A DNA stretch of 11,758 nucleotides from a virus (taxonomy: Duplodnaviria; Heunggongvirae; Uroviricota; Caudoviricetes): the IMG/VR virus record IMGVR_UViG_2690316233_000014; one strand, written 5' to 3'. Positions 6,152 through 10,751 of the stretch are shown here, in pieces. Numbering within the stretch: the first letter of the stretch is position 1; every line of letters begins with the position of its first letter. The position numbers and the translations under genes were made by a program. Below the pieces are notes generated by a model that was not told where the DNA came from, made no database searches, and saw nothing but the letters and a program-made list of their open reading frames with translations.

Positions 6152-6194
6152 GGTGTGGCCTCTTTGCTCGGTGATAGAAATAACTCACCATCCA

Positions 6195-6386
6195 GAGTTG
6201 AGAATCTCGGGGTGGCGAGACGTACAGGGTTCTCAACACCGGAGAGCAAAGAATCCGGCCCGACCGAAGTCGGCCCCGTACGCCCCGCCATAATTCTGAC
6301 GCGAAAAAGACGTGGCAATACAGTACGCACAAAAAAACCGCTTGCGCGGTTATGCGCTTTGCTCTGTATCGGGTTGAGAATCCCGG
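6195..6386 (-). ncRNA. candidate cis-regulatory or small-RNA leader with three related boxes
   Basis: On the + strand, box A GAGTTGAGAATCTCGG (6195-6210) and box C GGGTTGAGAATCCCGG (6371-6386) are 14/16 identical. Box B AGGGTTCTCAACACCGG (6226-6242) is complementary to both over 10-12 bp. A GGCCGAC-UUCG-GUCGGCC hairpin (6257-6276, - strand RNA) and a terminator lie between them. No ORF with a plausible RBS. Confidence 0.4.
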
Positions 6387-6455
6387 CACCCGTTTTATGA
6401 GGTGCAGCGGAAATGTAACCTGACCGATTGAGGCATGGCAAGCGGTTTTTTTGTG
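6328..6455. repeat. perfect 18-bp inverted repeat CACAAAAAAACCGCTTGC / GCAAGCGGTTTTTTTGTG flanking a 92-bp segment
   Basis: Left arm 6328-6345 and right arm 6438-6455 are exact reverse complements. The left arm is half of the - strand terminator; the right arm with CCGATTG...CAAGCGG plus a T7 run resembles a weaker + strand terminator. Confidence 0.55.
6330..6352 (-). terminator. intrinsic terminator or attenuator inside the leader
   Basis: On the - strand: AACCGC-GCAA-GCGGTT followed by seven U residues (GNRA-type tetraloop). Located upstream of the 76-aa, 129-aa and Rep genes. Confidence 0.45.
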
Positions 6456-6473
6456 TGTGCATGTTCTGGTTTC

Positions 6474-9303: not shown

Positions 9304-9708
9304 ATGAAAAATGATATTGGTCAGCGGTTGCGTGAGGAAAGGGAAAGATTGGGACTTAGTCAAGTTGCCATGAGCGACATTGGTGGAGTCAAAAAGCTAA
9401 CTCAGCTTAGATATGAGAAAGGAGATAGCTTTCCTGATGCTGCGTATTTGGCAGCGCTGTCTCGTTTTGGCCTTGATGTTCAGTATGTTGTGTTGGGAAT
9501 TCACTCACCTGAAACTTATAACGATGATGAGCAGGAGTTGATTACTCGCTTTCGAGCAGCTTCGTTAGATGTGAAAAACGCGGTGATTGGGGCTTTAAAA
9601 GGTGCGATCAGTGAAAAGGAAACTCAGCCATCAGGACGTGAGTTAAATATTTCTGGTGGTAATAACCGTATCGCTGGTCGTGACTATAACGAAACTAAGG
9701 GTAGGTGA
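9304..9708 (+). CDS. XRE-family HTH repressor (CI/C-like), 134 aa
   Basis: ATG at 9304 with AAGG upstream. N-terminus IGQRLREERERLGLSQVAMSDIGGV is a classic Cro/CI-type HTH. Ends with three tandem in-frame stops TGA TAG TAG (9706-9714). Confidence 0.8.
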   Translation: MKNDIGQRLREERERLGLSQVAMSDIGGVKKLTQLRYEKGDSFPDAAYLAALSRFGLDVQYVVLGIHSPETYNDDEQELITRFRAASLDVKNAVIGALKGAISEKETQPSGRELNISGGNNRIAGRDYNETKGR

Positions 9709-9723: not shown

Positions 9724-10374
9724 ATGGCCGTCAACTCAAACGGTTCAAACAATCGCGTTGCTGGGCGTGATTTTCACGAAAAGAATATTCAGATAGAGCG
9801 ATATGATGGTTCTCATACCGTCAATATCGCAATCCCTTCGAATAATGATGATGACGATCGCCCTTTGCTTAAGGCTCAGCGTAAGGAGCTAAATAGCTTG
9901 GTTGCTGCTATTGCAGAAGCTAGCAATACTGAAGCGTTTATTATTTGGCAAAAAGTACATGCGGAGATTGGTGTAGCTGGTATTGATGATATGACAGTAA
10001 ATCAATATAAAACAGCGGAGAGTTTTCTGCATGCAATGCTTGAGCGATGTAAAGATCATGATGCCTGTAAGGCTCTTGTAAGTTTATTACTACGTAACAG
10101 TGAAGACTGTGGACTTCGACAAAAACTTCTGCGGTATTGCCATATCAATTTCGGTACAGGACGTTTAAACGATCTTACTCGTTCTCAGTTACAGTCTGCA
10201 TTGTCGTGGTTAGAGCAACAATCGGCATCAAGCCACACAGAGAGTTCGACCTTACCAGAAGTCCGACTTCGTGCTTCAGAATTAATCCGACTTTATCCAA
10301 AAGAAATAATATTCTTTATCTGCGTAGGGGTTTTGGTAGGCGGTGTCATTTCTAGGGCGTTTTTTAATTTGTAA
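9724..10374 (+). CDS. tail-anchored membrane protein of unknown function, 216 aa
   Basis: Strong GGGAGGTGA Shine-Dalgarno before the ATG at 9724. C-terminal hydrophobic stretch EIIFFICVGVLVGGVISRAFF. The N-terminal motif SNNRVAGRDFHE echoes GNNRIAGRDYNE at the repressor C-terminus. AT-rich. Confidence 0.65.
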   Translation: MAVNSNGSNNRVAGRDFHEKNIQIERYDGSHTVNIAIPSNNDDDDRPLLKAQRKELNSLVAAIAEASNTEAFIIWQKVHAEIGVAGIDDMTVNQYKTAESFLHAMLERCKDHDACKALVSLLLRNSEDCGLRQKLLRYCHINFGTGRLNDLTRSQLQSALSWLEQQSASSHTESSTLPEVRLRASELIRLYPKEIIFFICVGVLVGGVISRAFFNL

Positions 10375-10403
10375 TCTTACTTGAGCTAAATTGAGGTAAT
10401 GAT

Positions 10404-10751
10404 ATGAAAGTAAAAAATGTTCAACTATTAGTTACTTTTTTATCTATGTTTTCTTTTTCCGCCGTCGCAATGCCTTTTAAAACTATTGAACGTGAGAGTT
10501 TTAATGGGGTATGGCCATTTAATACTGATGAGGTTCAATTACAGTGTCTTGATGGTAATCCTTATGTGATGAATTTTGACGATAATAAGTTATATGCACT
10601 TACAGGTTTGGCTCGAATAAAAGGTAAAACATTTGGTGCGTTACCGTTAGATAACAATAATCCATTTTGGCTAGATAATGATGCCGCCCCAGGGTTAAAA
10701 AAGAGTCTGGGGGATGTCACTAAGGCTGCATTTGATTTATGTGATAAGTAA
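10404..10751 (+). CDS. secreted or periplasmic protein with an N-terminal signal peptide, 115 aa
   Basis: GAGGT 7 nt before the ATG at 10404. MKVKNVQLLVTFLSMFSFSAVA looks like a Sec signal peptide; the mature part has two Cys residues. AT-rich. Confidence 0.65.
   Translation: MKVKNVQLLVTFLSMFSFSAVAMPFKTIERESFNGVWPFNTDEVQLQCLDGNPYVMNFDDNKLYALTGLARIKGKTFGALPLDNNNPFWLDNDAAPGLKKSLGDVTKAAFDLCDK

Follow-up and report, generated by a model that had tools for sequence, protein, structure and literature searches.

The stretch at positions 6152-6473 of an 11,758-nucleotide (nt) viral DNA (IMG/VR record IMGVR_UViG_2690316233_000014; this whole DNA is called the window) carries an element that is real and functional-looking and is of a known type in a new host lineage. 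With a probability of about 0.8, it is the RNA immunity module of a P88-like temperate phage of the P2 family, organised like the PLE-seqA-t1-cI-seqC region of satellite phage P4 and like the c4 system of phages P1 and P7, and sharing their mechanism. Two RNAs of catalogued types, one IsrK/seqA-like and one C4/CI-like, most likely keep the anti-repressor and replication genes of the prophage off. An original prediction, made from the sequence alone, had likened the stretch to the seqA/seqB/seqC RNA immunity of P4; this likeness is upheld by matches to the Rfam C4 and isrK models, by an epsilon homologue downstream and by covariation of short complementary boxes.

Two RNAs and their matched boxes

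A scan of the whole window against Rfam yielded exactly two matches above the gathering thresholds, to C4 (RF01695) and isrK (RF01394), both of which are on the minus strand, full length and inside the stretch, and stand in the same order as in P4 (Table 1). The covariance-model search that had been proposed for the stretch thus came out in favour of the P4-like reading. In the literature, isrK has been equated with P4 seqA and C4 with the P4 CI RNA, and the pair has been named the 'IsrK-C4 immunity system' (PMC3632133, PMC10111431, PMC4825925). Elsewhere, C4 scores 74.9 bits in P4 and 80.5 bits in P88, and isrK scores 60.8 bits in P4. RNA folding of the minus strand, also proposed beforehand, gave a consistent result: the minimum-free-energy structure of the C4 unit folded alone is the Rfam consensus structure (-47.6 kcal/mol, z-score -4.94, 55% of the ensemble). 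C4 shows a tRNA-like stem and a 3' CACCC tail, and the IsrK-like RNA folds into three hairpins with a z-score of -3.13. Among 44 diverse relatives, 16 of the 26 C4 stem pairs have compensatory changes, some columns of this set being fixed by the collecting pattern itself. The terminator and the UUCG hairpin noted at the outset are both real; the former reads AACCGC-GCAA-GCGGTT on the minus strand (6351-6336) and is followed by a seven-T run ending at 6331, and the loop of the latter lies at 6268-6265 on the same strand.

The original prediction rested on three boxes, of which A (6210-6195, minus strand, CCGAGATTCTCAACTC) and C (6386-6371, CCGGGATTCTCAACCC) are indeed identical at 14 of 16 positions, and B (6242-6226, minus strand) includes GTTGAGAA, the exact complement of the 8-nt core TTCTCAAC common to A and C. 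The letters run against the direction of transcription, box C being the upstream site and box A the downstream site. This pairing stands, but it is only one part of the specificity: a second, longer complementary set, contributed by a C4 loop, had been missed. Segment a' and loop b' of C4 each have exact complements of 8-9 nt on both sides, so that four sites result, a1 and b1 upstream inside isrK and a2 and b2 downstream, with the loop sequence UCUUUGCUC(U) complementary to AGAGCAAAG at b1 and GAGCAAAGA at b2. Dinucleotide shuffling of the flanks reproduced single complements in 10 to 213 of 20,000 trials and all four together in none of 20,000. In a fold of the full leader, C4 pairs in cis with a2 and b2. 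Elsewhere in the window, a search for further C4 targets found no site with both boxes.

Covariation of the boxes in related elements was assessed in loci collected by a C4-core pattern search, which gave 120 viral contigs, and by a search with the derepression protein encoded downstream, which gave 3 further genomic loci. The 107 distinct loci contain 49 loop sequences and 29 unpaired-segment sequences. Complements of at least 7 nt between a' and a2 are found in 103 of 107 loci for the self combination and in 21 of 972 non-self combinations; the corresponding numbers are 105/107 and 61/972 for a' with a1, 88/107 and 33/972 for b' with b2, and 78/107 and 50/972 for b' with b1. In 28 P88-like leaders, the promoter hexamers, hairpin 1, the terminator, the C4 stems and the Shine-Dalgarno (SD) sequence and ATG of the downstream gene are almost invariant, and the six short boxes are hypervariable and change together. 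In a set of 20 P88-like leaders, 95.9% of the cells of the upstream pairing and 95.6% of those of the downstream pairing are paired, and 78 cells have changed on both sides in each pairing; partners slid out of register are 24-52% paired with at most 19 double changes, and none of 500 shuffles reaches the observed values. With these two sets, the conservation check that had been suggested at the outset was passed decisively. The box pairings include G-U pairs, which indicates that the pairing acts in the minus-strand RNA.

Duplex energies agree with this specificity. The C4 of the window has -24.6 kcal/mol on its own targets vs -9 to -16 kcal/mol on targets of other specificities, and the means are -27.9 kcal/mol for self and -13.5 kcal/mol for fully non-self combinations. 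The a and b specificities reassort, and the P88 class has at least 7 types of a' and at least 9 types of b', none of them in common with P4-like elements.

The variability of the boxes bears on three other explanations of the stretch. An 8-bp core, present within 190 bp as two direct copies and an inverted one, could form operator or iteron sites for a DNA-binding protein. Such a protein site would stay conserved and not be replaced by at least 7 x 9 matched sequences, G-U pairs would be mismatches on the opposite strand, and the P2 replication origin is located inside gene A and not in a leader of this kind; this explanation is scarcely conceivable. The region might also be the N-terminal part of a gene for an Ash/Eta-family protein, the RNA matches and repeats being by-products of coding, as an open frame is conserved and has matches to Phage_ASH and to PHROG families annotated 'transcriptional regulator' (see below). 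Nonetheless, the changes in the boxes preserve base-pairing at six sites, including G-U pairs, and not amino acids, the covariance-model scores depend on structure, a conserved candidate promoter and a terminator lie inside the open reading frame (ORF), the product is of low complexity and is marginally similar to P4 Eta, and the Ash 'domain' is the RNA-bearing leader region in P4 (PMC10111431). An origin of the RNA features in coding alone is hardly credible. Finally, a purely cis-acting attenuator with alternative hairpins, the 'attenuation switch' of the original prediction, would work without a stable trans-acting RNA. The boxes are able to pair in cis and the terminator lies between them, but C4 is a very stable, autonomous, tRNA-like fold (55% of the ensemble) of a family whose members are processed trans-acting RNAs, and many matched box specificities are predicted by immunity between competing phages and are needless for a switch acting in cis only. 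This makes a cis-only attenuator very improbable.

The IsrK-like RNA is preceded by a candidate sigma-70-type promoter, the hexamers of which match the consensus at 9 of 12 positions in a promoter scan and the predicted start of which, at about 6405, falls on position 1 of the isrK model. Across the 28 P88-like leaders, the two hexamers hardly vary while the spacer does, and the equivalent position of P4 contains TTGCCT-17-TATAGT. This element would act as a promoter. A second candidate, TTGCCA-17-AATTAT (6318-6290, minus strand), is probably no promoter: its -35 hexamer is variable among relatives and its start would fall within the 5' stem of C4. The conserved AUUAUGG near C4 more likely reflects the 5' end of C4 together with the AUG of a long overlapping frame than a -10 hexamer. 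C4 itself would be processed from a longer transcript, with a 5' end made by RNase P, into a stable trans-acting RNA, by analogy with its relatives. The 5' end of C4-type RNA is made by RNase P in P1 and P4.

Table 1. Features of the RNA module and the genes that follow it in the window.
Feature	Position	Strand	Evidence or detail
Candidate internal sigma-70-type promoter (P4 PLE analogue)	6441-6412	minus	-35 TTGCCA 6441-6436, 18-nt spacer, -10 TACATT 6417-6412; promoter scan
IsrK / P4 seqA-type RNA	6405-6331	minus	Rfam RF01394, 63.1 bits vs gathering 50, model positions 1-77
IsrK-like hairpin 1	6405-6386	minus	
IsrK-like hairpin 2	6385-6370	minus	loop carries target a1 (6380-6373, UUCUCAAC)
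Target b1	6365-6357	minus	single-stranded; AGAGCAAAG
Intrinsic terminator (P4 t1 analogue)	stem 6351-6336	minus	GCAA loop, U7 ending 6331; terminator scan
C4 / P4 CI-type antisense RNA (88 nt)	6295-6208	minus	Rfam RF01695, 78.5 bits vs gathering 45, model positions 1-87, zero non-canonical pairs
C4 outer stem	6290-6274 paired with 6229-6213	minus	
C4 UUCG hairpin	6273-6260	minus	
C4 second hairpin	6259-6238	minus	loop carries b' (6252-6243, UCUUUGCUC(U))
C4 single-stranded segment a'	6237-6230	minus	GUUGAGAA
C4 3' tail			CACCC
Target a2	6204-6197	minus	UUCUCAAC
Small hairpin between a2 and b2	6189-6170	minus	
Target b2	6169-6161	minus	GAGCAAAGA; overlaps SD AAGAGG (6164-6159)
Eta-like ORF, 205 amino acids (aa)	6462-5845 (frame open from 6492)	minus	ORF list
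Epsilon-like 'derepression protein', 76 aa	6151-5921	minus	Pfam PF25738, 32.5 bits vs gathering 27; ATG 6151, SD AAGAGG 6164-6159
orf129	5848-5459	minus	phrog_3237; own SD
GpA-type replication endonuclease (gene A)	5489-2622	minus	Pfam Phage_GPA, E 5.5e-132

Some loci in the collection carry more than one module. In L067 (7044-7951), two C4 modules with differing specificities are about 870 bp apart, and in L094 a P4-type and a P88-type C4 module are located on one contig, about 8.4 kb apart. Two loci with GGUUGCAA specificity (L020 2999-3262 and L124 5745-6008) have one base more in a1 and one base fewer in a2 than all other P88-like leaders; these paired indels (alignment A1, columns 35 and 205) preserve both the pairing register and the downstream frame, and both loci are without an in-frame ATG upstream of the internal promoter. 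P4-like satellites and 'other' (lambdoid-type or unclassified) loci (L003-L122) share boxes with each other, namely ACGCCAA, TTCTCAC and TTTCCAC among a' and CCATTGAG and TCCTTGA among b'. Because of these shared sequences, RNA cross-immunity between satellites and unrelated prophages looks possible on sequence grounds. The idea that C4 RNAs of helper-type phages and satellites act as sponges for each other, the a' of the window (GUUGAGAA) resembling a P4 target and not the P4 antisense box, was dropped: the P88 and P4 box classes have a single exact reverse-complement relation (GTGGAAA / TTTCCAC) and zero shared 7-mers.

Likeness to P4 and other C4-bearing elements

[quoted passage not shown] The likeness is closest in detail for P4. 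In P4 and the window, the same two Rfam models match in the same order, a promoter is located directly upstream of the seqA/IsrK hairpins and an intrinsic terminator separates seqA from CI; a2 lies just past CI, b2 is fused to the SD and ATG, and the hairpin between them has a GUUAUUU loop. In both, a long ORF begins upstream of the promoter and reads through the RNAs in the same frame, and an epsilon-family gene followed by a replication gene lies downstream. There are also differences. From terminator to C4, the spacer measures about 108 nt in P4 and 35 nt in the window; the gene under regulation in P4 is kil, which lies within eta in the same frame, whereas in the window the epsilon homologue itself takes this place and is out of frame with the Eta-like ORF; and the replication protein is the alpha primase in P4 and GpA in the window, P88-like loci having no match to P4 alpha. 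In addition, P4 is a satellite, whereas the window belongs to a complete P2-family phage with a protein repressor, and thus does not class with the P4-like satellites. A global alignment of the P4 and window leaders misaligned the upstream half on account of the longer P4 spacer, and coordinates from the covariance models were used instead.

The comparison with P1 is based on identity of the Rfam family and on literature. RF01695 is named after the c4 system of P1/P7. The immI region of these phages reportedly has two-part a and b sites, with targets on both sides of c4 on the same transcript; the downstream site is said to cover the ribosome-binding site (RBS), the regulated product to be an anti-repressor, and the whole to form a second layer beside a protein repressor. 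By comparison, the protein encoded in the window is of epsilon type (PF25738) and not Ant/Icd, an IsrK-type terminator lies between a1/b1 and C4, and an Eta-like ORF spans the module. P1, P7, N15 and P4 have been grouped together before (PMC3632133).

Gifsy-1 resembles the window in several ways: its IsrK-family RNA bears a terminator and exists as a short and a read-through isoform, its C4-like RNA is derived from read-through, and an anti-repressor-type gene downstream (orf45-anrP) is controlled by pairing between IsrK and the C4 region (PMC4825925). It differs in being a lambdoid prophage, and in that its published model is one of activation by the short RNA. Hfq binding and the two isoforms have been established for Gifsy-1 IsrK only (PMC4825925). 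In another lambdoid-type locus (L010 1385-2536), which is not Gifsy-1 itself, a 383-aa ORF runs through isrK and C4 and has a Phage_ASH domain followed by a Phage_pRha domain; its RNA module presumably controls the Rha-type regulator gene that encloses it.

PICIs and helper-embedded PICIs likewise carry C4 and isrK inside genes of the Ash/Bro network of mobile elements (PMC10111431), like the window. These are satellites with primase-type replication, whereas the window is a helper-type phage, and domain and PHROG searches found no recognisable C-terminal Bro, Rha or ANT domain in its Ash-like ORF.

A literature search found no description of the module in P88-like P2-family phages, of an epsilon homologue as a direct C4 target or of an out-of-frame overlap between Eta-like and epsilon genes. 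In a survey of P4-like satellites, the 'epsilon' marker was PF10554, which represents the Ash/Eta leader region, and the conclusion was drawn that P4 shares extended homology with no phage; delta is viewed there as the sole P4-specific gene with clear P2-like homologues (PMC8628076). P4 epsilon is a member of PF25738, of which it is the archetype and a full-length match with 170 bits, and not of PF10554 (Ash).

The Eta-like frame, the epsilon-like gene and the proposed mechanism

The original prediction held that the stretch has no credible ORF. This is not the case: the 205-aa Eta-like ORF spans the entire stretch, and its frame has no stop over the 270-nt leader in 27 of 28 P88-like loci, each of the other five frames being open in at most 3 of 28. 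The ORF starts upstream of the internal promoter, runs through isrK, C4, a2 and b2 and covers the whole epsilon-like gene in another frame. It ends in a TGA that shares bases with the ATG of orf129 (5848) as ATGA. Its start lies 11 nt past the stop of orf99 and, in relatives with other upstream genes, -4 to +18 nt from the preceding stop. The frame includes the conserved AUGG at the 5' end of C4 and corresponds to that of P4 eta. Of 124 C4 loci, about 100 have the same frame open from upstream of isrK to well beyond b2, and the ATGA overlap with the next gene is usual.

The overlapping frame is also free of stops in 23 of 23 distinct P88-type epsilon-like genes, the aa identity of which to that of the window goes down to about 45-65%; a codon-permutation null gives 0.03-0.18 per gene for such an overlap, and the other alternative frame has 1-5 stops. 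As these frame statistics come from related, non-independent sequences, they are suggestive and not proof. The product is of low complexity and has many S, T, R and C residues, with a weak match to Phage_ASH and PHROG matches over its N-terminal half (E 1e-15 to 2e-7). Since similarity to P4 Eta is marginal (E 0.03), protein-level homology is not claimed, and the correspondence is limited to frame and position. Selection seems to have acted on the act of translation and not on the Eta-like protein. In P4, the CI and seqA RNAs lie within eta and the constitutive promoter is internal to it; translation of full-length Eta occurs only from the upstream late promoter and keeps transcripts from terminating (PMC10111431). 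A conserved coding frame across the region had been held in advance to speak against an RNA element. Such a frame is literally there, but the RNA element is not thereby refuted, P4 having the same dual arrangement (PMC10111431).

The epsilon-like protein shares 32% identity over 50 aa with P4 epsilon (E 6e-9). Its start is at a constant offset from C4 in about 27 P88-like loci with a tblastn match, and the layout with b2 over the SD is kept in these phages, as is the order orf129 to gene A. By analogy, the epsilon-like gene would be the first gene under C4 control and would act as an anti-repressor; orf129 and gene A are presumed to be indirect targets through polarity. The small immunity RNA controlling replication that had been suggested is therefore supported as to the RNA but not as to direct control, as b2 covers the SD of an epsilon-type gene and the replication genes would be affected only indirectly.

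The following mechanism is proposed. In a lysogen, the internal promoter would be constitutive and most transcripts would end at the terminator, giving an IsrK-like RNA of about 75 nt, while processing of read-through transcripts would yield a stable C4 RNA, about 80-88 nt long. C4 would pair with a2/b2 in cis or in trans and so block translation of the epsilon-like anti-repressor; Rho-dependent termination in the untranslated, C-rich epsilon-like ORF would then leave orf129 and gene A silent. Pairing of C4 with a1/b1 might strengthen termination as an autoregulation like that at P4 t1 or, equivalently, the short RNA might titrate C4. During lytic growth, transcripts from the upstream early promoter would be translated in the Eta frame through the module, which would melt the RNA structures and couple ribosomes to orf129 and gene A, making early transcripts insensitive to immunity. 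The variable boxes would set immunity specificity among related phages. This scheme has parallels in Gifsy-1 lysogens, in which IsrK and the C4-like STnc1160 are highly expressed in all conditions (PMC7067206); IsrK has short and long isoforms there and STnc1160 is processed from read-through (PMC4825925). Given that a protein repressor is encoded as well, the RNA probably forms a second layer of immunity guarding the anti-repressor, as in P1.

Several points weigh against this reading. The match of the window to the Rfam family c4-a1b1 (RF03163) has 15.9 bits vs a gathering threshold of 46.7 and is thus far below it; P4 reaches 44.1 bits, slightly under the threshold. A function of a1/b1 is still supported by their covariation. 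The leader has only about 48% nucleotide identity with that of P4. A helix-turn-helix (HTH) protein repressor and an Arc/Cox-like gene are also present in the element. The Eta-like product looks non-protein-like, and its translation is suggested by the frame statistics on related sequences. In contrast to P4, the regulated gene does not lie within the ORF in the Eta frame, so the rules of P4 may not hold exactly: kil is in frame in 22 of 25 P4-like loci, and 19 of 20 P88-like loci have the epsilon-like gene in another frame. Analogy is the source of the proposed promoter activity, RNA processing, 3' end at 6331, Rho dependence and action in trans.

The role of C4 might be restricted to repression of epsilon-like translation, as in the immI regions of P1 and P22, with gene A being expressed independently through the Eta frame and the SD of orf129. 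This would fit with b2 covering the SD of the epsilon-like gene alone, with orf129 having its own SD and being ATGA-coupled to the Eta frame, with the epsilon-like gene ending 72 nt earlier and with a conventional repressor being available for the early promoter. On the other hand, no other terminator lies between the internal promoter and the replication genes, so that some silencing mechanism is needed in lysogens, and the epsilon-like ORF, with a C/G ratio of 1.5-2.3, is consistent with a Rho entry site. In P1, the same architecture reportedly gives termination and polarity on downstream genes. The same is found in P4 (PMC10111431). A role limited to the epsilon-like gene is thus considered rather unlikely.

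A further alternative is activation of the kind described for Gifsy-1 IsrK, in which the short RNA would bind the C4 part of the read-through transcript in trans, free the RBS and turn the anti-repressor on, as a trigger of induction. Since a1/b1 and a2/b2 have the same complementarity to a'/b', the short RNA is able to compete, the fold of the full leader has C4 paired in cis with a2/b2, and there is experimental precedent in Gifsy-1 (PMC4825925). In P4, by contrast, CI-seqA pairing increases termination and is needed for immunity (PMC10111431, PMC3632133), and the sequence offers nothing that favours activation over repression. Activation is also compatible with repression, as the ratio of short RNA to C4 could set a threshold. 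It is possible that the short RNA acts in this way, but we do not favour it.

A more speculative extension of the repression mechanism is that P88-like phages have a complete P4-style cassette rewired as a frame-dependent switch. Transcripts from the internal promoter would translate only the C4-repressible epsilon-like gene, and early transcripts would use the Eta-like ORF as a 'translation-only' frame, bypassing both the RNA immunity and the epsilon-like start and coupling ribosomes to the replication genes; the epsilon-like protein might inactivate the repressors of rival P2-family prophages or that of the phage itself, and the cassette could be a source or a sink of the P4 immunity/epsilon region. 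This proposal is tentative, with the odds against it. If true, the cassette as source or sink of the P4 region would contradict the view that homology is restricted to delta (PMC8628076).

Phage lineage, distribution and annotation

The window represents the early region of a P88-like phage (Peduoviridae, Xuanwuvirus), its 901-nt leader with flanks having 91-93% identity with several of these phages. Head and tail genes of P2 type are present in P88, which is a complete phage, and so are both RNAs; neither C4 nor isrK was found in the P2 and 186 genomes. The combination of a P4-type leader with a P2-type element, which had appeared puzzling, is real but no paradox, the module being a trait of the P88-like lineage that is absent from P2 and 186. 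This P2-family lineage therefore shares RNA immunity, the Eta frame and the epsilon organisation with satellite P4, which bears on the origin of P4-type regulation as well as on the control of anti-repressor and replication genes by prophages. At least 7 x 9 box specificities reassorting in near-identical leaders provide a natural system for RNA heteroimmunity and a source of orthogonal antisense/target pairs.

On the minus strand, the genes are in the order MarR-type winged-helix gene, orf99, RNA module, derepression protein, orf129, GpA endonuclease, ParM and StbB-like partition gene; the plus strand has the HTH repressor gene (9304-9708), two cargo ORFs and the integrase gene. ParM (2545-1586) and the StbB/plasmid-stability-like gene (1716-1270), both on the minus strand, directly follow gene A, and both genes have been conserved in P88 as well as in P88-like loci. 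Together with an integrase in one phage, this pair suggests a plasmid-like maintenance option, comparable with the plasmid state of P4. The cargo ORFs (9724-10751, plus strand) lie between the repressor gene and the integrase gene, a typical 'moron' position, and encode a protein of 216 aa (phrog_5825, with a weaker match to a membrane-protein family) and a DUF2511 protein.

Of 5426 complete E. coli genomes, 1178 (22%) contain the leader. One RefSeq region inspected has neither a non-coding RNA (ncRNA) nor an Eta-like ORF annotated in it, and the other listed records show only the flanking coding sequences (CDSs); the module thus explains a 322-nt stretch that is left without ncRNA or Eta-like annotation in these records. 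Where the region is annotated, artefacts are seen: an opposite-strand 'hypothetical protein' over the RNA module in the P88 RefSeq record (L130, 5033-5221), a legacy 'cI gene product / transcriptional repressor' CDS in the P4 RefSeq record (L002, 8168-8584) and a 'similar to ash family protein' misc_feature produced by the Prokaryotic Genome Annotation Pipeline (PGAP) in L001 (6339-6599). A P88-like early region is also carried by a contig labelled Vagococcus sp., a Gram-positive bacterium (L125; NZ_JBQPOM010000071.1, 1-12228), with proteins 75-100% identical to those of the window; for the four genes that run from the epsilon homologue to ParM, identity is 88-100%. Contamination or mislabelling of the assembly is the probable cause.

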